In this document: piece after piece, positions 2,529 through 51,759 of the stretch | Layout of the letters: every line of letters begins with the position of its first letter | Position numbering within the stretch: position 1 is the stretch's first letter | Notes under the pieces: generated by a model | The model's database searches: none | Seen by the model: the letters and a program-made list of their open reading frames with translations, nothing else | Told to the model about the DNA's origin: nothing | Program-made: the position numbers and the translations under genes | From: an uncultured Bacilli bacterium | Lineage (GTDB): Bacteria; Bacillota_I; Bacilli_A; RF39; UBA660 | Length of the DNA: 57,535 bases | Direction of reading: 5' to 3' | Assembly: GCA_944363795.1 (NCBI GenBank) | Contig: CALVVG010000002.1 | Coordinates: 1 to 57,535 of the forward strand

Positions 2529-2720
2529 ATTAGACTAAGATAAAGTTATCTTGGTCTTTTTTGTGCAAAAAATAAATATTTTGCGACAAAAAAAAGGAGG
2601 TGAAAAAAATGCGATATTTATCTTTAAAACCAAAGTTAAAAGATTTGACGCAAGGATCAAGAATTGCTTTTGCAAGACAATTCAGAAAATTTACTCAAGA
2701 TGAAGTTTCAGAAAAGTTAG
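2434..2720 (+). repeat. direct repeat copy 1 (recombinase last ~95 nt, terminator hairpin, 5' third of HTH gene)
   Basis: By-eye alignment to 6347..6640. About 90% identity over the last 97 nt of the recombinase ORF. Same AGACTAAGAT hairpin stem. About three quarters identity over the first ~110 nt of the HTH ORF. Confidence 0.8.
2532..2563 (+). terminator. intrinsic terminator after the recombinase gene
   Basis: Hairpin AGACTAAGATA-aagt-TATCTTGGTCT followed by a T-run. Confidence 0.7.
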
Positions 2721-3142
2721 GGTTAACTGGAGAAAATAAAAGAGTAAATATGACAAGATATGAAAAAGGTGAAAGAACACCTAAAGACGATAGACTTATT
2801 GAAATTGCTAATATTTTAAAAATTAATCATCATTCTATTGAAAAATATAATTTTGAAAATCCCTTGGATATAGTTTATATATTTATGTGGTTAGAAGAAT
2901 TATATCCTAAAATGAATATTGATTTGGCAATGTCAGAACAACTTCAAAATAAAACAAATACTTTAATTAGAAATTTCATAAAAGAATGGCAACAAAATAA
3001 ACAAAAAAGAGAAAAGCGAGAAATAAGTTACGAAGAGTATATTGAATGGAAATTAACTTTTATATTAGATACTATAGAGTTACAAATTATTGGTAAAAAT
3101 AAAAGAAATAGTTACGTAAGTAATTATATAAAGAAAATTTAG
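2609..3142 (+). CDS. XRE-family helix-turn-helix transcriptional regulator
   Basis: AGGAGG at 2595-2600, ATG at 2609. GSRIAFARQFRKFTQDEVSEKLGL...NMTRYEKGERTP has an HTH_3-like pattern. Confidence 0.75.
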   Translation: MRYLSLKPKLKDLTQGSRIAFARQFRKFTQDEVSEKLGLTGENKRVNMTRYEKGERTPKDDRLIEIANILKINHHSIEKYNFENPLDIVYIFMWLEELYPKMNIDLAMSEQLQNKTNTLIRNFIKEWQQNKQKREKREISYEEYIEWKLTFILDTIELQIIGKNKRNSYVSNYIKKI

Positions 3143-3201
3143 TTGAAATATAGTCTTTTTAACCTTTATTTGATAAAATAAATCACTAAGAGGTGATTTG
3201 T

Positions 3202-4473
3202 GTGATAGAAAGCATATATATTAAAAATTTCAAAAAATTCGATAGAGAAACTATAAAAATAGAACAACATAATATTTTTATTGGAGAAAACGATTCTGGT
3301 AAAAGCACAGTACTACAGGCGTTAGATATTTTCTTTAATCAGGAAAAAATTGAAAAAATATTTGCTAGAAATCAATCAGAGCCTATTGAAATAGGAATAA
3401 GATACAATGGTGTCATGTACAAGAAAATTTATAGTGGAGCTACTTATAGAGTAACAGAAATACCTGAAAACATAGATGATTTAAATAATATTAAATACAT
3501 TTATATTCCGGTAGGAAAATATAATGTATCAGAAATAATACAACAACTATCAATAGCTAAAGTGTTAGAAAATACTAATAAAGAACTTCTCGATGAGTTA
3601 AAAAGAATATCCCAGAACTCAATTAATGAAGTAATCAGTGGAATAGATAAAGATTTGATAGTTTTGAATCAAGATACAACCAATATCCTAGGAAAAGAAA
3701 AATTTTCATATAATTCTAGTCTTAAGTTTGCAGTAGAAACTGATGGAGTAAGTGTTGAAGCTAGAGGATCAGGATTTCAAAAGAATCTTTTATATGCTTT
3801 GCTCATTGGAAATCAATATAATAACGTTATATTAGGAATTGATGAAATAGAAAATTCATTTTCAGTTAATAACGCAAAAGCTATAATAAAAAACATACAT
3901 GAAAGAATTGGGCAAACATTATTTACTACACATTCTCCACAAATACTTAACGCAAGAAATAATGCTAATATTCACCCGCTATTTAGTGATAACAACAAAT
4001 CATTAATAGAATTGCTTGAATCTTTAGATGATACCAATAATAAGGATTATGTATTAGTAGAAGGTCTTTATGATTTGAATTGGGTTAAGACAGCAATAAA
4101 TCTATTAGGAAAATCAAATGAATATATTGTTTTACCAAGTGGAGGTTGTGGGAATATAGAACACTTAAGAAACGAATTAGAAAGTTATAATAAAAAATGC
4201 TATTTAATAAAAGATGGGGACACTAACGAAGAAAAATCATTATCAAAAGATTGCATAGAACTATATGCGCCATTAGAAGCAATTAACGAAATCTTGGGTT
4301 TAGATTTAAAACATATACCAGTTACAAAAGAAGAGTTCTTTAATTTAACTGAAATTGAAGGTGTTAGAAACAATGAAACAGTTAAAAGTAAGTTATCAAA
4401 AGAAATAAATAAGTATTTAAAATTCGATAATCCATTAGTACAAGAAATAGAAGCATTAATTAGTGATAATTAG
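3202..4473 (+). CDS. ABC/AAA-type ATPase fused to a C-terminal Toprim-like domain (OLD-family / DUF4435-like nuclease candidate)
   Basis: Walker A GENDSGKST. Signature-like RGSGFQKNLLYALL. Walker B ILGIDEIENS. H-loop TTHSP. C-terminal YVLVEGLYD ... IKDGD matches the Toprim E...DxD pattern. Probable GTG start at 3202 after AAGAGGTGA. Confidence 0.65.
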   Translation: MIESIYIKNFKKFDRETIKIEQHNIFIGENDSGKSTVLQALDIFFNQEKIEKIFARNQSEPIEIGIRYNGVMYKKIYSGATYRVTEIPENIDDLNNIKYIYIPVGKYNVSEIIQQLSIAKVLENTNKELLDELKRISQNSINEVISGIDKDLIVLNQDTTNILGKEKFSYNSSLKFAVETDGVSVEARGSGFQKNLLYALLIGNQYNNVILGIDEIENSFSVNNAKAIIKNIHERIGQTLFTTHSPQILNARNNANIHPLFSDNNKSLIELLESLDDTNNKDYVLVEGLYDLNWVKTAINLLGKSNEYIVLPSGGCGNIEHLRNELESYNKKCYLIKDGDTNEEKSLSKDCIELYAPLEAINEILGLDLKHIPVTKEEFFNLTEIEGVRNNETVKSKLSKEINKYLKFDNPLVQEIEALISDN

Positions 4474-4522
4474 AAAAAATTAATTAATACACTATTTTTT
4501 CAAGAAGGGAAATGATATTACT

Positions 4523-5176
4523 ATGAAAAAAAAATTATTAGATTCTATTGAATTATATCATGAAGGTTATGGTGCCGGAGAAGGAACTACAGAATATTAC
4601 GAATATAAATGTCCTTGTGGAAACGGTACCATCATTGAAGAACATGATAATATACCTGGTTTTAGAGAACATGATGTATTTGTCAATTGTTCATATTGTA
4701 ACAAATTATTTTCAGTTAACACATTAAGCAGTGTACGTGATTGGAAATTAGATGGTTTCTTTGTAAAAGGGCTAACAAATTCAAAAATAAGGTTAGATGA
4801 AGGACTTAAAAACTTTGATGTAGGTATTTCTCTTATAAATTTTTTTGAGTTTCTTAGTTGGACTTTTTCTATTAGAGAAAAGTGTAATATAAATAATGAA
4901 GAGAATGCATGTTTTTATTCTTTAAAAGATGTGTTGAATTTGCTAAAACACGACTATGATTTAATACAACTTAATTTTTTGATTACCAATAAATATATCA
5001 CAAAACCTATAAAAGATAATGAGGCGAATATGATTGTATTTGGAGATATTTCATCAGTTGAGAATATCGGAACAGAGCGATTATCAAGATACAATTCCAA
5101 TCTTTTGAATAGGAGTGTGACTGAAATAACGCAGAAAATCTTTGAGGATACATTGATAATCTATAATAAAAAATAA
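4523..5176 (+). CDS. hypothetical protein with an N-terminal CxC...CxxC zinc-ribbon-like motif
   Basis: YKCPCGNG...VNCSYCNK. 49 nt downstream of the ATPase-Toprim gene on the same strand. The remaining ~150 aa are unrecognised. Confidence 0.5.
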   Translation: MKKKLLDSIELYHEGYGAGEGTTEYYEYKCPCGNGTIIEEHDNIPGFREHDVFVNCSYCNKLFSVNTLSSVRDWKLDGFFVKGLTNSKIRLDEGLKNFDVGISLINFFEFLSWTFSIREKCNINNEENACFYSLKDVLNLLKHDYDLIQLNFLITNKYITKPIKDNEANMIVFGDISSVENIGTERLSRYNSNLLNRSVTEITQKIFEDTLIIYNKK

Positions 5177-10591: not shown

Positions 10592-11530
10592 ATGAATATA
10601 TATATAATTAGTTGCGAAAGTTATCATTTAATGGATAAAGAAATAGCTAAAATTGTTAAAGATAATCACTATTTACTTTTTAATATGAATAATATATCAT
10701 TATCTGATATTATAGAAGAGGCAAATTATTTTTCTTTAACTGGAGAAACAAAATATATTGTTGTAAAAAATGCTGATTTTTTAGGGGGAGAAAAATTAGA
10801 GGACAACGATCAAAAAAAATTAATTACTTATATTAATAATCCTAATATTAATACTGTAATTATTTTCACAACTTTAAAACCACTAGCGTGGAAAAAAATT
10901 GAAAAAGAAATTAATGCTAATAATTATCAAATAATTAATTATAATAAATTAGATAAAAAGTCTATAATAAACGAAATTACTAAATATGTTAAAGAACGAA
11001 ACTATGAAATAGATTATCAAAGTATTAATTATTTAATCGATAATTCTTATTCCAGTTTAGATATCATTTTTAATGAATTAGATAAAATTATGTTATTTTA
11101 TTTAAAACCACAAAAGATTAATTTTAAGGATATAAACAATTTAGTTGGTATAGAAATTAATAATAATAGCTTTCGTTTTGTAAATTTAGTAATTGAAAAA
11201 AACTTAAGTGAAAGTCTTAAGTCATTAAATGATTTAAAAATTAATAAAGTAGAACCAATTAGTTTAGTAGCATTATTAGCACGTGAGTATCGCTTGATGT
11301 ATTATGTAAAAAAAATGCAAGAAAAAAATTTAACAAAATATGAAATGTGCCAAGAATTACAATTGCGAGATTGGCAACTTAATAAAATATATAATAATGC
11401 TATTACTTATAGTAAAACCGAATTAGAAAAAAATTTAGTAGATTTATGTAATATTGATTTAAATATTAAAAAGGGAATATGGGATAAAGATATTGCTTTA
11501 TATGGATTTTTACTAGAAGCATGTATTTAA
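10592..11530 (+). CDS. holA: DNA polymerase III delta subunit
   Basis: Position directly after comEC, as in Bacillus. About 312 aa. AGAGG RBS before the ATG at 10592. Sequence similarity is weak by eye, so the call rests mostly on synteny and size. Confidence 0.65.
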   Translation: MNIYIISCESYHLMDKEIAKIVKDNHYLLFNMNNISLSDIIEEANYFSLTGETKYIVVKNADFLGGEKLEDNDQKKLITYINNPNINTVIIFTTLKPLAWKKIEKEINANNYQIINYNKLDKKSIINEITKYVKERNYEIDYQSINYLIDNSYSSLDIIFNELDKIMLFYLKPQKINFKDINNLVGIEINNNSFRFVNLVIEKNLSESLKSLNDLKINKVEPISLVALLAREYRLMYYVKKMQEKNLTKYEMCQELQLRDWQLNKIYNNAITYSKTELEKNLVDLCNIDLNIKKGIWDKDIALYGFLLEACI

Positions 11531-12453
11531 ATTTTTTTAATTTTTTCAGTGTTTTTAAAATTTAATTTTGCAACTTTTTTTAATATATCTTTGCCAAATT
11601 TTTCTACCAATTTTTTACCAAATTTATCTACATTTTCTCCAGCACCTTTTGGGACTTCTTCATTAATTAAATTGCTTATTTTAGCAATTTCTTTTAAAAA
11701 GATGTATCTACTTATGATTGATGCACAAGCAACACTTAGACATTTGTCTTCTGCTTTAGGAGTAAAAGTAATGTTATTAATTTTATTTTTAATATCTTTT
11801 AAATATTCATAATATTTGGTGGGTGGGGTAAATTGGTCAACAATAATTTTATCATAATTTAAATTTTTATTAACCATGGTTAGTAAAGCTTTGTTATGTA
11901 AAATAGCTTTTATTTTGTTCATATTTAAATCATCACTATATTTGTTATTATAGTCTTCATTATTTAAAACAAATATACTATAAGGAATTTCATTCATAAT
12001 TTGAGGAGCTATTTTATTTATGGTTTCATCATTTATTTTTTTAGAATCTCCAACATTTAAACTATTTAAAAAATTTTGCTTATCTTTAGATACAAAAGTT
12101 GCTGTAACAACGATTGGACCAAAATAATCACCAGTTCCAACTTCATCAGATCCAATTGTGTTATACATATCATATTCATGGCGTTTATTATTTTCTTTAA
12201 TTTTATTTTTCCCCGTTTTTATATCTATAATACGATTATTTAATTTTTTTTCTAAATCAATCCATATATTGGCATCAACATCTGCACTGATACCTTGGAA
12301 CATTACTTTACCACTTTCATAAAGAGTAATTATAGTATCTGCTTCTTGAGCTTGAAAAATTGCATAAGGAGGAGTTTTTTCCCTAACAAGATTTTTATAA
12401 TAATGAATCATCTTTTCTTTGATATTTTCGCTAACTTTAAATACTATTGTCAT
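11527..12453 (-). CDS. rnhC: ribonuclease HIII
   Basis: GSDEVGTGDYFGP catalytic motif. N-terminal TBP-like domain. 308 aa. Confidence 0.85.
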   Translation of the reverse strand: MTIVFKVSENIKEKMIHYYKNLVREKTPPYAIFQAQEADTIITLYESGKVMFQGISADVDANIWIDLEKKLNNRIIDIKTGKNKIKENNKRHEYDMYNTIGSDEVGTGDYFGPIVVTATFVSKDKQNFLNSLNVGDSKKINDETINKIAPQIMNEIPYSIFVLNNEDYNNKYSDDLNMNKIKAILHNKALLTMVNKNLNYDKIIVDQFTPPTKYYEYLKDIKNKINNITFTPKAEDKCLSVACASIISRYIFLKEIAKISNLINEEVPKGAGENVDKFGKKLVEKFGKDILKKVAKLNFKNTEKIKKI

Positions 12454-18583: not shown

Positions 18584-20332
18584 ATGAGCTATATTAAAGA
18601 TACTGAGATAAATGCTATTCGTGAACAAGCGGATATAGTAGATATATTAGCAGATTATATTCATTTAGAGCAAAAAGGGAAAAATTTTTGGGCAAAATGT
18701 CCTTTTCATGGAAGTGGTAATGAAAGAACTCCTAGTTTTGCGGTTTCACGGGATCGCCAAACTTATTATTGTTTTTCATGTAAAAAATATGGTAATGTGT
18801 TTTCATTTATTATGGAATATGAAAACGTTGGTTATATAGAAGCTATAAAAATGGTGGCTGATAAAGTGGGATATAAATTAAATACAATTGAATTTGGCCC
18901 TCAAATAACAGCTAACAAAGATTTATATGATATTATGTCATTTGCAGAAAAATATTATCTTAATAATATATTTACTGAATCAGGAATAAAAGCCCGTAAA
19001 TATTTAGAAGATAGGGGTATTAACGAAAAAATAATTAGAGAATTTAGTTTGGGACTTGCCCCAATTGGAAAAAATACATTAAATAAATTATTAGTAAAAA
19101 AAGGATATAATGATAAACAATTAGATGAAGTTGGATTATTAAACAAGATTGGTATTGACACTTACGATACTTTTACTGATCGCATAATGATTCCAATTAA
19201 TGATTTAAAAGGGCAAGTTGTTGGATTTACAGGACGAATATTTAATGGTGAAGAAAATACTGCTAAATATATGAATTCAAAAGAAACAGTAATTTTTAAA
19301 AAAAGTAATATATTATTTAACTACTATAATGCTAAAAATGCTATTCGTGATGAAAAAAAAGTTATAGTTGTTGAAGGAAATATGGATGCTATTAAATTAA
19401 GTGCCAGTGGTATTAAAAATGTTGTGGCTTTAATGGGAGTGGTTTTATCTAAATTTCAAATTGAAGTATTGGCAAAACTAAAAGTTCCCATAATATTAAT
19501 GTTAGATAATGACTCCGCAGGATTAAATGCTACTTTAAAAAACGGGGAATTATTGGAAAAAGAAAATTTGAATGTATGCGTGGTAAGGCTTAATGATGTT
19601 AAAGATCCCGATGAATATATTCGATTTAAAGGTGTTGATGCTTTAAAAGATAATATAAAGCATGCTCAAAAATTTATTGATTTTAAATTAAAATATTATA
19701 AAGAAGGAAAAAATTTAGATAATGTAGAAGATTTAAGACAATATGTAAAGGAAGTTTTAAATAGTTTAAATAATACTGATGACTTGACAAAAAGCATAAT
19801 TATATCTAAAATAAGCAAGGATTATGCAATTGATATTCATGTATTGCAAGAAGAAGTAAATAAAGGGAAAGAGATTATTAAGGAAAAGAAAATAATTAAA
19901 GAAGAAAAATCTGTTCCCAAGTTTACTAAATATCATATAGCAGCAAGTAAAATTTTATATCATATGATGCATGATAAAAAATATATTACTATTTATAAAA
20001 ATAAACTAGGATATTTTAAAGAAAAAATAGAAAGGATAGTTGCAAGTGAAATAGTATTTTATAGTAATGAGCATAATAATATTAATATAGCAGATTTTAT
20101 TAGCTATTTAATCCCTCAAGAGGAATTAAATAAATATGTTAATCAAATAATAAGTGAAAACATTAATTCTGTAGTTAGTGAATCAGAATTTAATAATTGT
20201 ATAAATGTTATACTTAAATTATTAAAAAAAGATGAAATAAAATTATTAAAAGAAAAAATTAAAAATGAGATGGATATAAATAAAAAGGTTGAGTTAATAG
20301 CAAAATTGACTGAAATTAAAAAGGAAGTGTGA
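18584..20332 (+). CDS. dnaG: DNA primase
   Basis: Zinc finger CPFHGSGNERTPSFAVS...YYCFSC. Toprim VVEGNMD ... LDNDSAG. Confidence 0.9.
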   Translation: MSYIKDTEINAIREQADIVDILADYIHLEQKGKNFWAKCPFHGSGNERTPSFAVSRDRQTYYCFSCKKYGNVFSFIMEYENVGYIEAIKMVADKVGYKLNTIEFGPQITANKDLYDIMSFAEKYYLNNIFTESGIKARKYLEDRGINEKIIREFSLGLAPIGKNTLNKLLVKKGYNDKQLDEVGLLNKIGIDTYDTFTDRIMIPINDLKGQVVGFTGRIFNGEENTAKYMNSKETVIFKKSNILFNYYNAKNAIRDEKKVIVVEGNMDAIKLSASGIKNVVALMGVVLSKFQIEVLAKLKVPIILMLDNDSAGLNATLKNGELLEKENLNVCVVRLNDVKDPDEYIRFKGVDALKDNIKHAQKFIDFKLKYYKEGKNLDNVEDLRQYVKEVLNSLNNTDDLTKSIIISKISKDYAIDIHVLQEEVNKGKEIIKEKKIIKEEKSVPKFTKYHIAASKILYHMMHDKKYITIYKNKLGYFKEKIERIVASEIVFYSNEHNNINIADFISYLIPQEELNKYVNQIISENINSVVSESEFNNCINVILKLLKKDEIKLLKEKIKNEMDINKKVELIAKLTEIKKEV

Positions 20333-31230: not shown

Positions 31231-33021
31231 TTAGTTATCATCTTTTTTTTCTAAAAAATTCGATATAATAAACGGCATTGCAAATATAAACGGTAAAGCA
31301 TATCTAAAGTATGTATTAGCTGGGCCAACTACACAAACTAAAATTAACACTAAAGTTGGCAAAAGTATTAATATTTTTTTGTAATTTTTTTTATAGAATG
31401 TATATGCCAATAAAGTAAATATTATCCAAACATTAAAAGCAATATTAGAAATGAAACCAATAATAGGTATGTACGGAAATTCTACAGCAAAACCTGATAA
31501 TATATTTCTCATCGTTTTTAAAGAATTATAATGATAATTAAATCCATCTTCAGTTATTCTATCATCAAATTTATAATAGACATACCAATTTGTTTTTTCT
31601 GGATAAAAGAAACCATAAACATTATTCATTGTAGCTTCAATATAGGTACCAGGATGTTTCAATAAACCTTTAAACCAAACGTTAAAATATTTTAACAATT
31701 CCTCATTTGTAGTATATTTATTGTACGCGTTCTTTACTGGATCAGCAAGTTCTGGATCATAACGCTCCGCAATATCATCGTATCCTAACACATAATTTAT
31801 TATTTTTATATCTTCCTTACTTAAATCTTCACTATGATATTTGACATATCTAGCAGTCTGTTGAAAAGGTACTGATAACATTTCTCTAATACTTCCCGGA
31901 GTAATTTTAAAATATGGTAATAATATATTATTAAAAAAACTATTAAAACTAATTACTACAAAAAATACTAATAACAACTCTTTCCATTTCTTTTTGACAA
32001 CAAATAATAAAAATGGAAATGATAAGATTATTACATGAATACCATTATTTCTAAAAAGACATATTAAAATTAATAACATTATAATTAATAAATAATTCCA
32101 CCATTTATAGTTTTTTCCTTCAGTGCTAATCAAATTATGAATACATATTATATATAGAATTATAAATGCACCAAATAAAACATCTTTAACCCCACTCATA
32201 GCGTATAAAGGAAACATCGGTACTAGTGCATAAATAAATAATGTAATAATTAAATATTTATGATTTATTTTCATTTTATTCATATAGTATATTGTAAAAG
32301 CTAATACCGTTGATAAAATAATAATCTGAATTAAGCTATATATAAATAAGCCTAAATTGTCATTGCCAATTAATGTTCCTAATTTTAAACAGGAACCTAA
32401 TAAAATAGTATGTGTTACAGGGTGATGATTTGTCATTACTACATTTTCATCTAACAATACACTATAATCGGCATATTTAGTTCTAATACCAAAAAATTGT
32501 TTTATTTGAAAACTTGGATCAGGTGATAAAATAATTGGGTAAAAGGAAATTATGTAGGGTAACCAACAAATAATAATAAAAATTAAACTAAATAAAAATG
32601 GATGTTTTTTAAATTTAGTGATAAATTTATTAGTATTATTTTTATTAAATTTAAAGGTATCTAAAAATTTAAAAATATAACCAATTATTACATTAAATAG
32701 ATAAAAATAACCTAAATACATAATAACTGATATTCCCAAAAAACCAATATTTTTAAAGATTAATAAACAGCTATCCACTTTCATAAAACTATAGCCAAAA
32801 ATCATAAAAAATGCTAGTAGCATGCTTAAAATACAAATTGATTTATTATGATTAACTTTTTTATTTTTATAAAATTTAAAAAGTAAATATATTAATAATG
32901 TACTTGCCAAAAAACCTAGTTTAAATAAATTTTTAAATTCTCCTAGATATAAATTATAAATATCAAAGTTTAAGCTTATAAATGTGCATAAAACTAAAAA
33001 AAACAATTTAAATTTTTTCAT
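31231..33021 (-). CDS. large polytopic membrane protein, candidate GT-C-type glycosyltransferase
   Basis: 596 aa with more than 10 TM helices and a soluble C-proximal region. Operonic with the GT2 and GtrA genes. Confidence 0.5.
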   Translation of the reverse strand: MKKFKLFFLVLCTFISLNFDIYNLYLGEFKNLFKLGFLASTLLIYLLFKFYKNKKVNHNKSICILSMLLAFFMIFGYSFMKVDSCLLIFKNIGFLGISVIMYLGYFYLFNVIIGYIFKFLDTFKFNKNNTNKFITKFKKHPFLFSLIFIIICWLPYIISFYPIILSPDPSFQIKQFFGIRTKYADYSVLLDENVVMTNHHPVTHTILLGSCLKLGTLIGNDNLGLFIYSLIQIIILSTVLAFTIYYMNKMKINHKYLIITLFIYALVPMFPLYAMSGVKDVLFGAFIILYIICIHNLISTEGKNYKWWNYLLIIMLLILICLFRNNGIHVIILSFPFLLFVVKKKWKELLLVFFVVISFNSFFNNILLPYFKITPGSIREMLSVPFQQTARYVKYHSEDLSKEDIKIINYVLGYDDIAERYDPELADPVKNAYNKYTTNEELLKYFNVWFKGLLKHPGTYIEATMNNVYGFFYPEKTNWYVYYKFDDRITEDGFNYHYNSLKTMRNILSGFAVEFPYIPIIGFISNIAFNVWIIFTLLAYTFYKKNYKKILILLPTLVLILVCVVGPANTYFRYALPFIFAMPFIISNFLEKKDDN

Positions 33022-33063
33022 TTAATCACCTACAATTAAATTATATCAAAAAAATACATTATT

Positions 33064-33816
33064 TTAAAATAATAATGTATTTATTATAATTAATATTATT
33101 CCACTTATAAATCCTATAATTAAAGCTTTATTTTCATTGTATTTTAATGCCTTTGGAAATAATTCTTGTATGGACAATGTGATCATTAAACCCGCAACAA
33201 TTATTAATATAATACTAATCATCATTTCTGACATAAAATCTTTTAAAAAAACAAAAGCTAAAATTGCCCCTATCGGTTCTGCCATTCCTGATATAAATGC
33301 ATTTTTAAAAGCTAATTTTTTATTTCCTGTGGAATAATATATTGGTATTGCAATACTAATTCCTTCTGGTATATTATGAAGCATAATCGCAATACTAAGT
33401 TTTATTCCTAAATTAATATCCTGATAACTACTTAAAAATGTAGCAATACCTTCTGGTAAATTGTGAAAAATTAAGACAATCATATTTAAAATTCCAAGCC
33501 GGTATAAATCTTCTTTTTGGCTTTCTTTTTTTATTAACATGCTTAAAGTTGTTATAAAAATATAACTAATTATAAAAGCTACTATTAATAATATTATTGA
33601 TTTTGATATCCCATAAACATTAAAATATTGAAAAAATGATTCAGGAATTAAATCTAAAATGCTTATTCCTATCATAATAGCTATTGAAAAAGATAAACAA
33701 AATGTAATAAATTTATTGTAATTCTTTTTTTTTATTTTAAAAAAAGTTAAAAAAGCCCCAATAAGTGTTGAAAGGCCAGCTATACTAGAAATTAAAAGAG
33801 GAACTAAAGAAACCAT
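33064..33816 (-). CDS. zupT: ZIP-family zinc transporter ZupT
   Basis: HNLPEGIATF and HNIPEGISIA motifs. About 250 aa with 8 TM helices. Collinear with E. coli ZupT by eye. Confidence 0.85.
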   Translation of the reverse strand: MVSLVPLLISSIAGLSTLIGAFLTFFKIKKKNYNKFITFCLSFSIAIMIGISILDLIPESFFQYFNVYGISKSIILLIVAFIISYIFITTLSMLIKKESQKEDLYRLGILNMIVLIFHNLPEGIATFLSSYQDINLGIKLSIAIMLHNIPEGISIAIPIYYSTGNKKLAFKNAFISGMAEPIGAILAFVFLKDFMSEMMISIILIIVAGLMITLSIQELFPKALKYNENKALIIGFISGIILIIINTLLF

Positions 33817-33851
33817 AATCCTCACCTATTTTAATAATATTAACTATTAAG

Positions 33852-34793
33852 TTATTTTATGTTTCTCAATTCCTGTAAATATTCCCTATAAATAGAATAA
33901 TCTTTATTTAAATAAAGACAATAATTAATTTTACCTATTAAAGAATTTATATATTTCTTTTTATTCATAATTTTTTTCTTTTTTAAATGACTATCTATTC
34001 CATATTTTTTTATATAATACATTTCTTGCCGAATTTTATGACGATATTCTTTTTTAGCATTGATTTTTTTATTAACAACAATTCCTGTTACTATTTGACA
34101 CTTATTTGAATATACTATATGTATTTTTTTGTAGTTTAATTTTAAATGAATTTTCTGTAATTCTTGCTTTACAATTTTAATAATAGCTGAAGTATTAAAA
34201 TCCCCAGAGAATGTTAAGTCATCGCAATATCTTGTATAATTAATATTGTTAATTGAGCAAAACTTTCCAATAACCCAATCAAAATTTCGTAAAATTATAT
34301 TTGATATATATGGTGAACTTGGTGCACCTTGCGGTAATTTATTATGGTAAGTTGTTAGTTTTGTTAACAAAATACCAATAGATTTAGGATATAATTCTTC
34401 TCTAAAACAACTTTTATATATTTGCCAAAATGTAATATTGTCAAAAAAATCTTTTATATCCAATTTTAAAATTTTCTTTTGATTTACATGAATAAGTGCA
34501 TTGTCTTTTAAACTAATTCCTTTTTTATAAGCAGTAGCATATGGAGAAATCCTTTTTTCTATTAAGACATTGTGCAGAATATTTCTTTGAATATTTTTTA
34601 ACAAAGGACTAGGTTCATAAACATTTCTAGGTTTTCCATTTTTTTTATAAATTGTTGTTTCTATATAATGATTTTCTATATTATTACTAAGATAATATAA
34701 AATTTGTTTTAATTTTTTTATATCTTTAGTTTTTAGCAAATTAAAAGAAAGTAAGAATTCGTCATATGCCTGTATTGGTAAATGTTGCCACAT
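33852..34793 (-). CDS. retron-type reverse transcriptase
   Basis: RNVYEPSPLLKNIQ, LKLDIKDFFDNI, KLPQGAPSSPYISN, YTRYCDDLTFS (YxDD box) and the retron-typical VTGIVVN. Collinear by eye with Ec86 RT. GGGAGG RBS at 34802-34808. Confidence 0.9.
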   Translation of the reverse strand: MWQHLPIQAYDEFLLSFNLLKTKDIKKLKQILYYLSNNIENHYIETTIYKKNGKPRNVYEPSPLLKNIQRNILHNVLIEKRISPYATAYKKGISLKDNALIHVNQKKILKLDIKDFFDNITFWQIYKSCFREELYPKSIGILLTKLTTYHNKLPQGAPSSPYISNIILRNFDWVIGKFCSINNINYTRYCDDLTFSGDFNTSAIIKIVKQELQKIHLKLNYKKIHIVYSNKCQIVTGIVVNKKINAKKEYRHKIRQEMYYIKKYGIDSHLKKKKIMNKKKYINSLIGKINYCLYLNKDYSIYREYLQELRNIK

Positions 34794-34809
34794 AATTCTT
34801 ACCTCCCTT

Positions 34810-34970
34810 TAGAGCAATATACTAAATATTGTAAATATGAAAATGTACCAAAGCGTAGCTTATACGTATTACGTATGGCAGTACATTGCAATATTTATAT
34901 GGAATTGATTAATAATTACTTATCTTTAGCGACTCGCTAAAGTTTTTAAATATACCCTATATTGCTCAGT
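34810..34970 (-). ncRNA. retron msr/msd non-coding RNA (candidate)
   Basis: 10-bp inverted repeat a1 GAGCAATATA (34958-34967, minus sense) and a2 TATATTGCTC (34812-34821). GGG immediately 3' of a1 (34955-34957). msr-like hairpin at 34924-34942. Nested msd-like stems at 34842-34848/34881-34887 and 34862-34876. Confidence 0.7.
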
Positions 34971-35004
34971 CATATTATATCAAAATTTTATAGTAAAATA
35001 AATC
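34971..35004 (-). promoter_or_regulatory. retron promoter (extended -10)
   Basis: Minus strand TGATATAAT. TATAAT is at 34974-34979 and TG at 34981-34982. The predicted start falls at the first bases of a1. Confidence 0.5.
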
Positions 35005-35661
35005 TTATTTTTTACAGAATTCAATTAAAGATTGAAATATCTTTAGGGAATTTTCATCATTTAAATCTTCTGGATGCCATTGTAATCCCAAAATAAATTT
35101 TTTATTAGGTATATGAATCGCTTCTATTATATCATCGTGGCTTTTGGCATCGATATTAAAAAATGATTCTACAATTACTGTGCTCATATGCCTACTATTC
35201 ACACATATTTTTGTTTTGCCTAAAATATGAAATAATAATCCTTCTCCGATTATTATTTCATGTACATAATCATTATCTAAAACATTATGATTAATATTAC
35301 TATTAATTTTAATAGTTTTATCACTTTGAATACTACCACAAAAGTTATTCATATTAGCAATAGCTTGCATGCCAGCGCATATACCAAGTAAAGGAACATC
35401 ATTTTCTACGGCATATTTTATAATTATTTCATCATTTAGATTCCAAGTATTGCCACCAGGAATAATAAAACCATTACATATTTTTAAAATATTTAATAAA
35501 TTTTTATAAGCAGTAGAAAAATCATCAGAATTTAAAGGAATTAATAATGGAATACCACCGCTACTAACTACTTTATTAATAATACTTTTATTTACTTTAA
35601 CTATTTCTCTTTCGTTATATAAATCTGTTCTAGTTGTAATACCAATTATAGGTTTATTCAT
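35005..35661 (-). CDS. class I glutamine amidotransferase-like / peptidase C26 (gamma-glutamyl hydrolase family)
   Basis: GICAGMQ nucleophile elbow and LGLQWHPE His/Glu motif. Confidence 0.8.
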   Translation of the reverse strand: MNKPIIGITTRTDLYNEREIVKVNKSIINKVVSSGGIPLLIPLNSDDFSTAYKNLLNILKICNGFIIPGGNTWNLNDEIIIKYAVENDVPLLGICAGMQAIANMNNFCGSIQSDKTIKINSNINHNVLDNDYVHEIIIGEGLLFHILGKTKICVNSRHMSTVIVESFFNIDAKSHDDIIEAIHIPNKKFILGLQWHPEDLNDENSLKIFQSLIEFCKK

Positions 35662-35749
35662 AAAATTTGTCCTTTCTAATTATTTCCAATTAAATATATG
35701 ATTAATTTGATAAAAACGTTTCATAATAATAGTGGGAGGTAACAATATA

Positions 35750-35872
35750 ATGAGTAAATCAAAAAGTTCTGCTAGAAGTAATTCAAAAAACAATTGCAAA
35801 GCTTCTAGTTCAAGTAGTGCCAAAAGTAACTCTAAAGCACGAAACAATGCTCGTAACGAAAGTTGCAATTAA
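35750..35872 (+). CDS. 40-aa Ser/Asn/Lys-rich peptide
   Basis: GGGAGG at 35734-35739, ATG at 35750. Encodes MSKSKSSARSNSKNNCKASSSSSAKSNSKARNNARNESCN*. The 62-aa minus-strand ORF in the track is its antisense shadow. Confidence 0.45.
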   Translation: MSKSKSSARSNSKNNCKASSSSSAKSNSKARNNARNESCN

Positions 35873-35874
35873 AT

Positions 35875-36780
35875 TTAATCAATTCCATTTTCTTTATGAG
35901 CTCGAGGATGATGTTGATAATCGTCCTCGATTTTTTTATTACTTAAATGAGAATATATTTCGGTAGTAACTAAATTTTCATGTCCTAGCAGTTCCTGAAT
36001 AATCCGTAAATCTGCACCATTATTTAATAAATAGGTAGCAAAAGAATGTCTTAGTGTATGGGGAGATACATTTTTATTAATCCCAGCTTCTTGAGTAATC
36101 TTTTTTAAGATTTTAAAAAAGCCTTGTCTACTTATTTTTTTCCCATCTTTATTAATAAAAACATAATTACTATTTTGGGTTTTTAAAATAAATTTTCGAT
36201 ATTCCTCAATATAAAGTTTAAGATAGTTTAAGGCTGTATTGCCAATTGGAATTATTCGATCTTTTTTTCCTTTACCTAAAACTCTAATTACACATTCATC
36301 ATAATCTATTTGATTTAACTCTAAGTTAATTAATTCACTAATTCTGGCTCCTGTTGCAAACAATACTTCTAGCATTGCTTTATTACGATAATCAATAGGT
36401 TTTATTAAACGTATATCAAGTAATTTATTAATTACTTCAATCGTTAAATAATTAGGTAGTTTTTTTTCTATTTTAGGAGCCTTTAAATTATCACAAGGAT
36501 TGCAATTTACTTTATTATTATATACCATATAATTGTAAAATGAATTATAAACAGACAAATAATGAGCTTTAGTTTTAGCGCTTACATTTATTTGTTTTAA
36601 AAAATTTCTTATATCATCAGCAGACACATCTAAAATACTTTTATTATAGGTTTCTTTTAATAATTTTAAATTTTCACCATAAGAATCAATGGTATTATTA
36701 GAAACTCTTCTTTCATATTTCAAATATTCTAAATAATCAATAATACTTGCATCATTTATATGTTCCATTATATTTTTCAT
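35875..36780 (-). CDS. xerD: tyrosine recombinase XerD/XerC family
   Basis: ATGARISEL ... HTLRHSFATYLLNNGADLRIIQELLGHENLVTTEIYSH (R..HxxR..Y). 301 aa. Confidence 0.8.
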   Translation of the reverse strand: MKNIMEHINDASIIDYLEYLKYERRVSNNTIDSYGENLKLLKETYNKSILDVSADDIRNFLKQINVSAKTKAHYLSVYNSFYNYMVYNNKVNCNPCDNLKAPKIEKKLPNYLTIEVINKLLDIRLIKPIDYRNKAMLEVLFATGARISELINLELNQIDYDECVIRVLGKGKKDRIIPIGNTALNYLKLYIEEYRKFILKTQNSNYVFINKDGKKISRQGFFKILKKITQEAGINKNVSPHTLRHSFATYLLNNGADLRIIQELLGHENLVTTEIYSHLSNKKIEDDYQHHPRAHKENGID

Positions 36781-36833
36781 ACAAACATTATACCGCTTTT
36801 ATATAGTTTATGCTATAATATTTACGTGATATT

Positions 36834-38027
36834 ATGAAAATTTTAGCAGATAAAATTCGTCCTCAAAAATTATCGGATGTTATAGGACAAACACATTTAA
36901 TTGGTAATGGTAAGATTTTAACTAATCTTATTAATAACCACAAGATATTTTCAATGATTTTTTATGGTAAACCAGGAATTGGTAAAACTAGTATAGCCAA
37001 TGCAATAGTAAATGAACTAAACGTTAAATATAAATTTATGAATGCCACTATTAATAATAAAAATGATTTTGACATTGCTATTGAAGAAGCCAAAATTAAT
37101 GGAGATATGGTGTTAATAGTAGATGAAATACATCGTATGAATAAAGATAAACAAGATTTATTATTACCATATATAGAAAATGGGACGATTATTTTAATTG
37201 GTTTAACAACATCAAATCCCTATCATAAAATTAACCCTGCTATCAGAAGTAGATGTCAAATATTTGAACTTCATGAATTAACCACTGATGATATAGTTTC
37301 AGGTTTAAAAAAAGCTAGCAATTATTTAGAAAATATTGAAATATGTGATGAAGTTTTTGATTATATAGCTAATTTAGCTAGTGGAGATTTACGCTTTGCT
37401 ATAAATTTATTAGAAATGGCTTATTATTCTTCTAGCGATAATCAAATTAATTTAGAGTTAATTAAAAGTATTAATTCAAAACCAGTTTTTTTTCACGATA
37501 AAGATGCAGATGGTCATTATGATGTTTTAAGTGCGTTGCAAAAATCAATTAGAGGAAGTGATGTAGATGCTTCCATACACTATTTAGCTAGACTAATAGA
37601 AGCAGAAGATTTAGATAGTATTTATAGAAGGTTATCTGTTATAGCATATGAAGATATTGGAATGGCTAATCCCGGAATTGGTCCTAAAGTTATGGCAGCT
37701 ATAAGTGCTGCAGAATTAGTTGGTTTACCAGAAGCACGAATTCCTTTGGGACAAATAGTTGTAGAAATGGCTTTATCTCCCAAAAGTAATAGTTCGCATC
37801 TAGCTTTAGATGAAGCATTAAATGATATTAGAAAAGGATCTACTGGTAACGTTCCAAGCCACATTAAAACTTCAAGCAAGGAATATCTTTATCCGCATAA
37901 TTATCCTAATTCTTGGGTTAAACAAGATTATTTACCTAATAATCTTTTAGGCCGACAATATTATAAACCTAAGAACAATAAAGTTGAATTAAATTTAAAT
38001 AAGTTGCATGAGGAGATGAAAAAATGA
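36834..38027 (+). CDS. rarA: replication-associated recombination protein A (MgsA/RarA AAA+ ATPase)
   Basis: GKPGIGKTS Walker A, VDEIHR Walker B, SGDLRFAIN. C-terminal MgsA domain ALQKSIRGSD.DA..YYLARL. Confidence 0.9.
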   Translation: MKILADKIRPQKLSDVIGQTHLIGNGKILTNLINNHKIFSMIFYGKPGIGKTSIANAIVNELNVKYKFMNATINNKNDFDIAIEEAKINGDMVLIVDEIHRMNKDKQDLLLPYIENGTIILIGLTTSNPYHKINPAIRSRCQIFELHELTTDDIVSGLKKASNYLENIEICDEVFDYIANLASGDLRFAINLLEMAYYSSSDNQINLELIKSINSKPVFFHDKDADGHYDVLSALQKSIRGSDVDASIHYLARLIEAEDLDSIYRRLSVIAYEDIGMANPGIGPKVMAAISAAELVGLPEARIPLGQIVVEMALSPKSNSSHLALDEALNDIRKGSTGNVPSHIKTSSKEYLYPHNYPNSWVKQDYLPNNLLGRQYYKPKNNKVELNLNKLHEEMKK

Positions 38028-40822: not shown

Positions 40823-42682
40823 TTAAATAAATATATCGGAATTTGATACATTTGTTATATTATCAGATGCTGGCGTTTGAGAAATATTTGGATTAAAATT
40901 GTTTTGAGGCACTATGTTAATATCTTTTTTTGGTTCCCATTTCCAACACGATGATACATCACAATTACTGCTATATGGCATTGGATTAGGTAATTCCATT
41001 TTGACTATCATAGGAATTTTAAATGCTCCTCCAAAGCAAACACATGTACCAGGTTGTAATACTTTTTGCTTATCTAATATATCAGCGGAAATGTTAGGAA
41101 GCATTTCTCCGATATATTTAATATCTAGAGGATGTGTCATTTTAAATATCAAAAAATTATTACATTGAGCAATTACGGTATCTGATATTTCAACTGGTCT
41201 TTGACTAATAATATCTAGTATAACCCCATATTTACGGCCTTCTTTAGCAATACGATCAAATATATTATACCCTAGTAAGAATGTATCATTATCTTTTTGA
41301 ATGTACCTATGTGCTTCTTCTAAAAATAGATGAAAAGGAACTTGAGCTCTTAATTCACTGCCTTTAGCAAAATCGAATATAATCCTGGAAATTATTTTCA
41401 CAAAAACTTTAGCAAATATATCATCTATATCTTCTAGGTTAATATTAATAATTTGAGCTTTTTTACTTCCACTTGCAATTAAAGATACAATATAATCTTT
41501 TAATGGAACATAATTACTATTAAAAAAATTATTAATTTTACTATTAATTATGGAATTTAATCTAACTTTTAAAATAACTGAATCATCATGTAAATTTTGA
41601 TTATGTTGAAATCCTTCACTTATCAACGTAAATTCTAATGCTTTAGCAAAATCTTTCAAAGAATAACTTGCTTCCTCTGGTGCTTGTATCGTATCTAAAG
41701 TATCATTTATTTTCCCTAAAATATAATTAGTTATAAGTACTGATTCACCAAAATTACCATTTGAATCTATTTCGAAGCATTCACTAAATGTTCTTGTATA
41801 ACCAAGTCCAGGAATTACTGAATCAAAATTAAATTCAGGAGTATTACATACTTCAATTATTGTAAATATTTCATTTTTTTTGCTAGCTACAGTTTCACTA
41901 CTAAAAAGAACAGCTAATAGAGCTTTAGCAATTAAATGATTTTTATAATCATTGGCTTCTTGGGAATTAGTGGAAAAAATTTTAGCCAATTTTATAGTAT
42001 GTTCAATAATTGGCAATTGTGCATGATTAGATGCTTGTAATAGTAGGGCCATATCATCAAGTTTTAACAAATTAACCGGTATACTTAATGGAATATCACC
42101 TACATCGCTAGGATTAGTTGTAATAAATTTATAACTATAATTAGCATTAATTTCATTTAATTTGCCAAAAGCATTTTTATATTCCCCAAATGAATCAAAT
42201 ATAAATAAATTGGCATTATATTGTATTGAAAATTTATTGTTAAAAATATTTTGTACAATTCTAGCAACCCCACAAGATTTACCAGAACCAGAGTTGCCAA
42301 AAATAGCTAAATGATTTGAAAACAAACTATTTATATTAGGACATATTTGAAAACCTTTATAAATGGCACTTTCCCCCAAAATAAAGCTTGATGCATCGTA
42401 TGTACCAACTAATTCCATTAATTCATCTTTATTAATCATTCTAATTTTAGAAGTTAAAAGAGGTTTTCTAAGTACACCATTAACATATTTTCCATTAATA
42501 TATTCACCTAAAAATCTAATTTTAATTATTTCATTACTTAATTCTGACACTTCTCCCAGAATTTTTTGATTAGCCTCTTCAAATATAACATTCATGTTCA
42601 TTAAATCTGCAGCATTTACTTCTTTTTGTAGATTTTCAACATGAGCTTCACTATCTCCTATATATATTATTTTACCAAACAT
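40823..42682 (-). CDS. HerA/DUF87-family P-loop ATPase (FtsK-HerA superfamily)
   Basis: AGGAGAG RBS before the ATG at 42682. N-terminal barrel-like region. Walker A FGNSGSGKSCG. Walker B HLFLEEAHRY. GRKYGVILDIISQRP...AQCNNFLIFKM is typical of HerA-like ATPases. Confidence 0.75.
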   Translation of the reverse strand: MFGKIIYIGDSEAHVENLQKEVNAADLMNMNVIFEEANQKILGEVSELSNEIIKIRFLGEYINGKYVNGVLRKPLLTSKIRMINKDELMELVGTYDASSFILGESAIYKGFQICPNINSLFSNHLAIFGNSGSGKSCGVARIVQNIFNNKFSIQYNANLFIFDSFGEYKNAFGKLNEINANYSYKFITTNPSDVGDIPLSIPVNLLKLDDMALLLQASNHAQLPIIEHTIKLAKIFSTNSQEANDYKNHLIAKALLAVLFSSETVASKKNEIFTIIEVCNTPEFNFDSVIPGLGYTRTFSECFEIDSNGNFGESVLITNYILGKINDTLDTIQAPEEASYSLKDFAKALEFTLISEGFQHNQNLHDDSVILKVRLNSIINSKINNFFNSNYVPLKDYIVSLIASGSKKAQIININLEDIDDIFAKVFVKIISRIIFDFAKGSELRAQVPFHLFLEEAHRYIQKDNDTFLLGYNIFDRIAKEGRKYGVILDIISQRPVEISDTVIAQCNNFLIFKMTHPLDIKYIGEMLPNISADILDKQKVLQPGTCVCFGGAFKIPMIVKMELPNPMPYSSNCDVSSCWKWEPKKDINIVPQNNFNPNISQTPASDNITNVSNSDIFI

Positions 42683-42737
42683 ATTTATCTCTCCTATGCT
42701 ATCTAAATTATACCATAGCATAAAAAAAAGTAAAAGG

Positions 42738-50823: not shown

Positions 50824-51759
50824 ATGAATAAAGAAAATATTGAAGAACTAATCAATTCTTTAATTAATAGTGGTATAGTAAAAAGAACTACTCTAGAAGT
50901 ACTTGACATTTATAATAATTTTGAATTAGATGATGATTCAAAATATTTATTAGAAGATATATTAGGTCTTTATAAAGAGTATCTAAATTCATTGTTAATT
51001 TTAAATGAACACAAAGAAGTTTTTTTGAAAACTTTAAAACAAGAAGAAATTAAAAGAAATCAAGCCTTAGAAAATGTTAGCCCTTTTTTAATACAAATGT
51101 TTATGAATGCAAAACATAAATCAGCTACGAATTTAACTATACAAATAATGAAAGAACGCAATCTTTTCTCAAAAGATGATTTAATATTAATAAATAAAAC
51201 AATACTGAATGGGCTTTCTTTATCTTTAGATAATTCCGCTAATCATTTAAGAACGGCTAATAATTCATTTGTTGGAAAATTTAAAACTGAAAACGGAAGA
51301 ATAAAATTCGTTGATGATGTATCTTATATTCCAATTGATTATTCAGATATTAATGAAGCATTAGATAAAATTTTAGATATTTTAAACAAAAAAGATTTTG
51401 TAAATATAGAATCTATTTTTGTAAATCCAATATTTTTACATGGGTTTATTGCAGCTTTACAATGTTTTAAAGATGGTAATTCGCGTCTTGCTAGAATTTT
51501 ATTTCATTGTAAATTATGGCAATTAACTAACTTTTTTTATAACAGTAACTTAGAAAGTCCTGCCCTTTTTACATCTGAAGCAATTTTACATTACGAAAAA
51601 CAAGAAATATATCGTGAATTAATAAAACAAATAGCCATTAATCCAAACAATGAAAATTTTAATAAATGGTTACAATTCAATTTGTTATTAGTTGAAAAAC
51701 AAATATATTTAAATCAAGATAAAATGCACGAGTGTATGCGAATTTTAAAAAGATCCTAA
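50824..51759 (+). CDS. Fic/DOC-fold protein with a degenerate active-site motif
   Basis: FLHGFIAALQCFKDGNSRLARILF aligns to HxFx(D/E)GNGRxxR, with Q in place of the catalytic H and S in place of the second G. Confidence 0.6.
   Translation: MNKENIEELINSLINSGIVKRTTLEVLDIYNNFELDDDSKYLLEDILGLYKEYLNSLLILNEHKEVFLKTLKQEEIKRNQALENVSPFLIQMFMNAKHKSATNLTIQIMKERNLFSKDDLILINKTILNGLSLSLDNSANHLRTANNSFVGKFKTENGRIKFVDDVSYIPIDYSDINEALDKILDILNKKDFVNIESIFVNPIFLHGFIAALQCFKDGNSRLARILFHCKLWQLTNFFYNSNLESPALFTSEAILHYEKQEIYRELIKQIAINPNNENFNKWLQFNLLLVEKQIYLNQDKMHECMRILKRS

Follow-up and report, generated by a model that had tools for sequence, protein, structure and literature searches.

The DNA analysed here, a stretch of 57,535 nucleotides (nt) of contig CALVVG010000002.1 from an uncultured Bacilli bacterium (hereafter the window), carries a retron on its minus strand: positions 33852-34982 comprise an extended -10 promoter, a 156-nt gene for the msr/msd RNA and the gene of a retron reverse transcriptase (RT) of 313 amino acids (aa). 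It is likely that we are dealing with a functional two-part retron of the Ec107-like type (clade 2 of Mestre et al.), an 'orphan' that occupies a fixed chromosomal site in a gut Bacilli lineage of low guanine-plus-cytosine (GC) content. This confidence refers to the identity and the molecular mechanism of the element; the retron is real and intact, and its biological role falls outside that estimate. An initial annotation of the same DNA had recognised a retron, a view that is upheld by the class of the RT in PADLOC, by a covarying non-coding RNA (ncRNA) and by the a1/a2 repeat that encloses this RNA, and all sequence features listed there are present where they had been placed. The novelty then claimed was overstated, as the effector-less Ec107 branch had been described in 2020 (PMC7736814) and was surveyed in 2026 (10.64898/2026.05.14.725207). 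Absence of an effector is a known trait of the Ec107-like clade and not a peculiarity of this locus; the retron of the window is one further member of an already described group and nothing categorically new. Its parts are the following:

33852-34793 (-): retron RT, single domain, Ec107-like clade, 313 aa (PADLOC, Pfam, identity to the Ec107 RT)
34802-34807 (-): ribosome-binding site GGGAGG, 8 nt before the RT start codon (sequence; GGAGG-type sites at the same place in relatives)
34812-34967 (-): retron ncRNA gene (msr-msd) from a1 to a2, 156 nt (covariance model R1, 106.7 bits)
34812-34821 (-): a2 arm TATATTGCTC (RNA UAUAUUGCUC), perfect 10-bp complement of a1
34832-34822 (-): conserved single-stranded stretch ACAAUAUUUAG (alignment)
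34822-34897 (-): msd, template of the predicted multicopy single-stranded DNA (msDNA); helices 4-6 covary, ends placed by analogy with other retrons
34896-34891 with 34838-34833 (-): basal stem of the msd (six-helix model)
34887-34881 with 34848-34842 (-): middle stem of the msd (six-helix model)
34876-34871 with 34867-34862 (-): apical hairpin of the msd (six-helix model)
34924-34942 (-): msr hairpin CTTTAGCG-AGT-CGCTAAAG (RNA CUUUAGCG-AGU-CGCUAAAG), CGAGUCG core invariant
34955-34957 (-): GGG after a1 (sequence)
34957 (-): candidate branching (priming) guanosine, the first base after a1 (invariant column G12 of a 29-sequence alignment)
34958-34967 (-): a1 arm GAGCAATATA (RNA GAGCAAUAUA), perfect 10-bp complement of a2
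34974-34982 (-): extended -10 promoter TGATATAAT (read from the sequence; conserved in relatives)

The translated open reading frame (ORF) of the RT contains the motifs LKLDIKDFFDNI, LPQGAPSSPYISN, the catalytic YCDD and VTGIVVN and, in addition, NALIH, which conforms to NAxxH. Motifs specific to retron RTs are NAxxH, which precedes the fingers domain, and VTG, in the region near the thumb, and the columns of N98, H102, T236 and G237 are invariant across 31 relatives. Pfam detects RVT_1 alone and no additional domain, so that the annotated RT motif set without a fused domain is confirmed. The best PADLOC model is RT_Ec107-like, which matches over the full length (1.8e-116, 387 bits) and surpasses the best III-A model by 48 bits (RT_III-A, second, 339 bits), and every one of the 25 top-ranking PADLOC matches is a retron RT model. 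The NCBIfam models for group II intron RTs (53.6 bits, cut-off 300) and for Drt2 (50.7 bits, cut-off 390) are far from their thresholds; the RT thus sides with retrons and not with the RTs of group II introns, diversity-generating retroelements, abortive infection systems or the unknown groups (UG), a clustering with which would, according to the initial annotation, have spoken against a retron. The scores for the NCBIfam retron families St85, Ec67 and TIR are under their cut-offs as well. Placement within the Ec107-like clade is by PADLOC profile scores and not by a tree; the true Ec107 RT and three relatives rank the models in the same order as the RT of the window (Ec107-like above III-A), and for one distant relative (L013) both models score equal. 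The database holds 3924 relatives of the RT at E <= 1e-10; the 120 closest of them consist of a single domain without exception and are nearly always ~310-320 aa long. Those used below were taken from species-representative genomes (13) and from metagenomes (80, where at least 549 exist), and several more were added via exact-protein look-up.

Selection on the RT was assessed by the ratio of non-synonymous to synonymous substitution rates (dN/dS), which amounted to 0.17-0.34 over eight comparisons that include pairs without any accessory gene. Values of 0.17-0.21 were obtained for the RT of the window against its relatives and of 0.18 (L044/L124) and 0.21 (L040/L044) for pairs that lack the accessory module described below; the dN/dS of PyrG in the same genomes was 0.03-0.07. 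The retron stays at the same site across species whose RTs differ by a dS of more than 1.3. Because the ORF is intact, the RT shows this range of dN/dS and the ncRNA is conserved with covariation, the sequences argue that neither the RT nor the retron as a whole is decayed. The closest RTs in the phage and plasmid collections were 37% and 46% identical, respectively, and these collections gave no evidence that the clade travels on phages or plasmids. A second RT was not found in the window by the local RT profile; a PADLOC match to RT_UG29 (5e-50) at 18584-20332 (+) was rejected, being the primase domain of the housekeeping protein DnaG, which covers only the primase part of the 2280-position model.

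The ncRNA was characterised from 68 non-identical regions upstream of related RTs, which were searched with the CGAGUCG hairpin and the G-N-G motif as anchors. This anchored search, and later a covariance model, replaced a first inverted-repeat finder that had returned spurious AT-rich repeats in many loci. A common layout is present in 66 of the 68 regions and consists of a1 (6-11 bp), G-Y-G, 16-31 nt, the hairpin, the msd, a2 and, after 13-22 nt, the ATG of the RT. Pairing of a1 with a2 at the homologous position occurs in the same proportion of relatives (66/68) versus 3.4% once the a2 window is shuffled, and at least ten distinct a1 cores are each accompanied by a matching a2; the perfect 10-bp inverted repeat of the initial annotation is confirmed. 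A first alignment, A1, in which the a1 of the window had been misplaced by its TA extension, was replaced by A5. A model of six helices, based on 29 sequences aligned with plain MAFFT, has 91.7% of its cells paired versus 32-43% if the partners are slid by 1-3 columns. Double changes, on both sides, are found in 32 of its 40 pairs, and the covariation score of 0.393 (0.155 in shuffles) was reached by none of 500 shuffles. In a model-fitted alignment of 71 distinct sequences the paired cells amount to 92.9% and the pairs with double changes to 37 of 40. Compensatory changes are seen across relatives in all eight aligned pairs of the a1/a2 helix; the stem of the msr hairpin is 97.8% paired with double changes in five of eight pairs, and msd helices 4-6 are 83-96% paired with double changes in 16 of 20. 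The 8-bp msr-like hairpin (34942-34924) and the nested msd-like stems (34896-34833) that had been annotated are present, with an AT-rich stretch between them, and the whole RNA (160 nt) folds with a1 paired to a2 (z = -2.9).

A covariance model, R1, was built from the 29-row alignment, with the row of the window included and Ec107 left out of the seed. The msr/msd region, for which the initial annotation had foreseen such a search, is matched full length at 34810-34969 (-) with 106.7 bits as the sole site in the window, the sequence of the window itself being part of the seed. Across the RT loci R1 finds one copy each in 95 of 100, invariably in the orientation of the RT gene and with its end immediately ahead of the RT start; of the five remaining loci, four are truncated at the RT and the other is the most divergent of all. 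It finds nothing at loci with an empty site or at those of more distant retron RTs, and it recognises the ncRNA of Escherichia coli Ec107 over the full length (52.8 bits, E 1e-6). A scan of 33000-37000 against Rfam at E <= 10 returned no retron family, and no Rfam family at all on the ncRNA of the window; a PyrD-leader match in the scanned region was judged to be due to chance.

The extended -10 promoter reported in the initial annotation is found at 34982-34974, and its box ends 6 nt before a1, so that the start of transcription is expected at or just before a1. In 52 of 66 related loci a TGnTAnaAT box precedes a1 by 4-7 nt, as opposed to 1.5% of random 28-nt windows. In a generic sigma-70 scan promoter-like sites were not above chance in this AT-rich region, and the promoter of the window, which has a weak -35, was not listed; the promoter call therefore rests on conservation. 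The GGG noted as a candidate for branching is present at 34957-34955, and the column of G34957 is invariant, which makes this residue the predicted 2'-5' branch point.

The closest characterised system is Retron-Eco5 (Ec107), the locus of which we recovered from E. coli via two msd fragments in a primer table (PMC8563936). It is arranged as pyrE, ncRNA, 319-aa RT and slmA and occurs in 366 of 5426 complete E. coli genomes. Both retrons share RT_Ec107-like as the best PADLOC model (437 bits for Ec107, 387 for the window) and have the ncRNA directly upstream of a single-domain RT of ~315 aa, without an accessory gene and between housekeeping genes. They also share the RNA signature, in which a1 ends with ..GCAAUA and is followed by G-C-G and a hairpin with a GCGAGUCGC core: the Ec107 sequence, read directly, contains ..GGCAATA-GCG.. 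and the GGCGAGTCGCT hairpin, and a GGCGAGUCGCU hairpin is common to the window and Ec107. R1 covers the ncRNA of both. On the other hand, the RTs are only 38% identical (over the full length, E 4e-79), and the host of Ec107 is a proteobacterium whereas the window stems from a gut Bacilli metagenome-assembled genome with 24.5% GC in this region. The Ec107 ncRNA has ~180 nt compared to 156 nt in the window and its msDNA 107 nt compared to a predicted ~76-79 nt; moreover, the window lacks the first msr hairpin and has GGG instead of GCG as its branch context. Retrons of type III-A, which combine an RT with an effector resembling a phosphoribosyltransferase (PRTase) and in some cases a winged-helix protein, belong to the sister RT group and provide the second-best models (339 bits), but the window lacks an adjacent gene of either kind and favours the Ec107-like model by the margin given above.

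The effector-less state of this clade is documented in the literature. Mestre et al. described in 2020 the clade 2 branch that contains Ec107 with 59 RTs and no associated protein cluster, and left it open whether orphan retrons use a trans effector or a different mechanism (PMC7736814). In the SPIRE survey of 2026, which includes an Ec107_like msr/msd model, clade2_Ec107like is the second most abundant retron group (192 members, 93% from Bacillota and 91% host-associated) and has no recurrent accessory modules (10.64898/2026.05.14.725207). The locus of the window shares with this group the phylum Bacillota, the association with a host, the high-confidence RT, the msr/msd of the Ec107_like kind and the lack of a recurrent accessory module, in agreement with our 98 loci in 49 lineages, and differs from it in nothing essential. 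Contigs related to the window come from human, Hadza and animal gut metagenomes and are labelled as uncultured Bacilli or Tenericutes; together with the low GC content of the region, these sources match the published ecology of clade2_Ec107like. Ec107 was left out of the defence tests of Millman et al.

We assume that the retron works as follows, the layout being drawn by homology. The extended -10 promoter (34982-34974) would drive a transcript from a1 through the ncRNA and the RT gene. No terminator was found between RT and zupT by a generic scan, the sole 'terminator' being the antisense reading of the msr hairpin; the transcript therefore probably continues into zupT. The RNA would fold with a1 paired to a2, and the RT would recognise the invariant GCGAGUCGC hairpin (34942-34924), which is probably its recognition element. 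Priming would take place on the 2'-OH of the invariant G34957, and the msd would be copied from ~34822 back to ~34897, after which the template would be removed by the RNase H of the host. What presumably results is an msDNA of ~76-79 nt in the form of a hairpin, linked to the msr RNA; as plus-strand DNA, the predicted msDNA (34822-34900) folds at -12.9 kcal/mol (z = -4.07). We infer msDNA synthesis, its end points and the recognition of the hairpin by the RT from this homology. Clade 2 retrons were among the strongest producers of RT-DNA upon expression in E. coli in an experimental census (PMC10849725), and the maturation of msDNA in studied retrons relies on host RNase H (PMC8989520). A candidate for an RNase HIII-like protein, judged by eye from its N-terminus (308 aa), is encoded in the window at 11527-12453 (-); a PADLOC scan of it was empty.

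Since no toxin gene is adjacent, a mechanism in which the msDNA restrains a neighbouring toxin cannot apply in cis. If the retron is functional, we give the greatest weight, though somewhat less than half of it, to an RT-msDNA complex that works with a partner not encoded beside it; action without a dedicated effector, for example as a decoy or as a physiological signal, receives a smaller share of about a third, and other roles have the remainder. A title in the reference list of PMC7736814 indicates that the expression of Ec107 is induced by starvation.

Upstream of the retron lies the following gene:

35005-35661 (-): peptidase C26/class-I glutamine amidotransferase (GATase), 218 aa, on the same strand as the RT

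The gene downstream encodes a permease of the ZIP family that matches the ZupT equivalog model of NCBIfam (2.2e-65), although with 220.5 bits it remains below the curated cut-off of 252. The annotated distance of 35 nt between RT and zupT holds if zupT starts at ATG 33816 and has to be reduced to 26 nt with GTG 33825, the start in the mechanical ORF list. We surveyed the neighbours of 98 loci, which form 49 RT lineages at 85% identity; any one protein cluster adjoined the retron in nine lineages at most. The most recurrent ones were GATase/PyrG (9 lineages), ZupT (8) and XerD (6), all within the syntenic subgroup of the window, which has the order GpsA-RarA-XerD-C26-(240 aa)-PyrG-RT-ZupT-DUF6020-GT2-GtrA. 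Elsewhere the neighbours include AMP-binding plus 3HCDH, HMGL-like, cyclophilin-like, ToxN, SpoIVA, a small methyltransferase, UvrD, NUDIX and DUF4379 proteins, and no PADLOC retron effector model matched the neighbours in these lineages. A more distant relative (L122/L123; ZupT 70% and XerD 68% identical) has the order HerA-...-ThiF-GpsA-RarA-XerD-C26-(231 aa)-ZupT with neither RT nor ncRNA. C26 and ZupT are bystanders, ordinary housekeeping genes, because their neighbourhood is kept in this RT-less relative and their association with the RT is confined to the syntenic subgroup of the window; the initial annotation had named conservation of both genes in retron-less relatives as the sign by which bystanders would be known. 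The other outcome that it had named as speaking against novelty, namely that close relatives always sit beside a known effector which was lost here, is not borne out by the 49 lineages, which have no shared neighbour and no match to an effector model.

Several further observations concern this neighbourhood. Compared with the other RT-bearing loci of the syntenic group (L001, L035, L038, L040, L042-L044 and L124-L128), the window is unique in having no pyrG between C26 and the retron (34794-35004), and pyrG, the gene of CTP synthase, is absent from the whole window. Ec107 is found beside pyrE and the RTs of the relatives of the window beside pyrG, both of them genes of pyrimidine synthesis and in two different phyla; this may be a coincidence, most other lineages having unrelated neighbours. 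At the RT-less locus (L122:5630-7759 and L123, from Hadza gut on a 952-kb contig) the place of retron and pyrG is filled by the 231-aa protein, which has a weak similarity to SigI (1.3e-5). Two relatives, L125 and L126, have identical ZupT proteins at an RT dS of 0.23 and a PyrG dS of 0.79, which suggests a recent recombination between lineages over the RT-zupT segment. Antisense between XerD and C26, a small conserved ORF (window 35732-35872 (+), ~40 aa) encodes a Ser/Asn/Lys/Arg-rich peptide ending with ..ARNESCN; a gene of 38-42 aa is called at this place in all syntenic relatives whose gene tables cover it, the sequence having been compared with L035 only. An ORF of 62 aa at 35680-35868 (-) is the antisense shadow of this small ORF.

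In three sister lineages of the syntenic group (L035-37, L125 and L127) a pair of genes is inserted between RT and zupT:

L035:6943-8272; L125:5462-6779; L127:4748-6053: two-gene module, absent at window 33826-33851

The module encodes a DUF1292-like protein of 86-88 aa and a protein of 350-358 aa with an invariant HExxH...NEGYT motif, and its first gene starts right behind, or already within, the end of the RT gene (gaps of 2-5 nt or an overlap of 22 nt by gene calls). It is limited to one subclade, the RTs of which are 71-87% identical to each other, and there to only some members: L125 carries it and L126 does not, at an RT identity of 87%. The window shows no trace of it. The HExxH protein family comprises only five clusters among 5.8 billion proteins and has no match by sequence in Pfam, PADLOC, NCBIfam or the Protein Data Bank (PDB); its AlphaFold model (mean predicted local distance difference test score 51) was too poor for a fold search. 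By the invariant HExxH...E motif alone it is a candidate metallopeptidase, and the module is a candidate, unproven accessory pair of the retron, a local point that is reported neither by Mestre et al. in 2020 nor by the SPIRE survey of 2026. In a fourth lineage (L128:3476-5870 and L129) the RT survives as pieces of 64, 117 and 129 aa and the HExxH gene as pieces of 57 and 245 aa, with the ncRNA (104.5 bits) and the DUF1292 gene intact. The decay there is probably real, since the same split of the HExxH gene is present in contigs from two samples.

We confirmed that no canonical effector is adjacent to the retron: it is flanked by C26/GATase and ZupT, and none of the 50 other ORFs of at least 100 aa in the window, the part of the genome in which effectors were searched, matches a PADLOC retron effector model. 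Neither here nor at the 98 related loci examined does a PRTase-like or winged-helix gene stand beside the RT. An effector may nevertheless be encoded elsewhere in the genome, with the RT-msDNA restraining or activating an unlinked toxin in a tripartite retron. This explanation was raised for orphan retrons by Mestre et al. (PMC7736814); in its favour, just 57 kb were available and the sister RT group III-A, on whose model the RT scores 339 bits, uses PRTase-like effectors. We nonetheless consider it rather unlikely, for apart from the negative result in the window, homologues of the proteins known to accompany retrons are missing from most genomes that harbour orphan retrons (PMC7736814), and the genes of a defence toxin and its antidote hardly ever occur unlinked, whereas the RT has been kept through a full turnover of neighbours over 49 lineages. 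A neighbour as an unconventional effector, namely the C26/GATase-like protein or ZupT, which was one of the readings of the initial annotation, is close to refuted. Direct adjacency on the same strand without a detected terminator before zupT would speak for it, as would the presence of the RT beside ZupT in eight lineages and the vicinity of nucleotide-metabolism enzymes both in Ec107 (pyrE) and in the relatives of the window (pyrG). This adjacency, however, belongs to a synteny of the whole region that L122/L123 keep without RT or ncRNA, about 40 other RT lineages have unrelated neighbours, and pyrG parts C26 from the retron in all other RT-bearing relatives; in addition, neither C26 nor ZupT matches a defence model beyond noise, and ZupT has its equivalog match, if below the cut-off.

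A third explanation considers the retron as a functionless remnant that lost its accessory genes, either the DUF1292 and HExxH pair or an ancestral PRTase. It could draw on the module between RT and zupT in L035-37, L125 and L127, where the window has just 26-35 nt, on the fragmented RT and HExxH genes of L128/L129 and on the suggestion of Mestre et al. that a PRTase partner was lost in the Ec107 branch (PMC7736814). Yet the ORF is intact with all catalytic motifs, its dN/dS is as low in the window as in module-less pairs, and the pairing of the ncRNA is kept through compensatory changes, among them matched TA/TA insertions that only the a1/a2 of the window has. Moreover, the module was more probably acquired locally than inherited from the ancestor of the clade, because it is found in one subclade only and its HExxH family in so few clusters. 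We therefore hold a remnant to be very improbable; the initial reading of an 'effector-less or decayed' retron stands in its first half and has to be abandoned in its second.

Some points weigh against the interpretation as a functional two-part retron. For the locus of the window as for its close relatives, msDNA is a prediction, and so are its branch point and its ends. The RNA of the window is atypical: helix 2, the small hairpin after the branch G, is missing, a1 is followed by GGG in the window alone where the 65 other relatives scored have G-Y-G, and a1/a2 is 2 bp longer than in relatives by a matched TA/TA extension on both arms. With 106.7 bits it lies in the lower part of the family range (81-159 bits for full-length relatives, apart from L001 with 64). 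The window covers only 57 kb of the genome, and an unlinked effector may be encoded outside it. Three sister lineages with the module and a decayed fourth mean that the copy of the window could derive from an ancestor that had the module and lost its partner, and the RT has occasionally decayed in relatives (in L128 and possibly in L043), which shows that some lineages can dispense with the element. Finally, the clade has no member with an established biological role.

Other genes of the window may be mentioned briefly. Four genes in a row at 702-5176 (+) code for a large serine recombinase (608 aa), a helix-turn-helix protein with weak RmrA-like matches, an AAA ATPase (426 aa) with N-terminal matches to models of AriA, GajA, OLD and AbiL (up to 2.5e-20), and a Cys-rich protein of 217 aa. 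Together they may represent a mobile defence islet of small size, ~29 kb away from the retron; there is no evidence for a link between these genes and the retron. A 632-aa ATPase of the HerA/DUF87 type at 40823-42721 (-) (PADLOC HerA, 3.7e-105; 85% identical in L001) is probably a conserved chromosomal gene and not part of a defence island, since it is found in L001 and in the RT-less relative too. A Fic-domain protein is encoded at 50824-51759 (+) (PADLOC SoFic model, 1.6e-16).

A more far-reaching interpretation, which we put forward only tentatively and with considerable doubt, is that Ec107-like retrons of gut Bacilli are residents of the chromosome, passed on vertically over long periods, whose RT-msDNA has a function of its own independent of any linked toxin, with the lineage-restricted pair of DUF1292 and HExxH (zincin-motif) genes as an optional, hitherto unrecognised accessory module and the window as the bare core. 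In any case, the functional two-part retron proposed here is a clean instance of a puzzle. The usual account of retrons is that they sense phages and guard a toxin, but one of the most abundant groups in host-associated Bacillota has no toxin gene, and this toxin-less group is shown here to be under purifying selection with a covarying RNA. The puzzle could become open to testing in this lineage, where naturally occurring genotypes form a series at a single chromosomal site. This series extends from the empty site (L122/L123) via the bare RT and ncRNA (window, L001, L038, L040 and L126) to RT and ncRNA with DUF1292/HExxH (L035, L125 and L127) and a decayed copy (L128), and it is suited to asking whether the RT-msDNA acts alone and whether the two-gene module is an effector.

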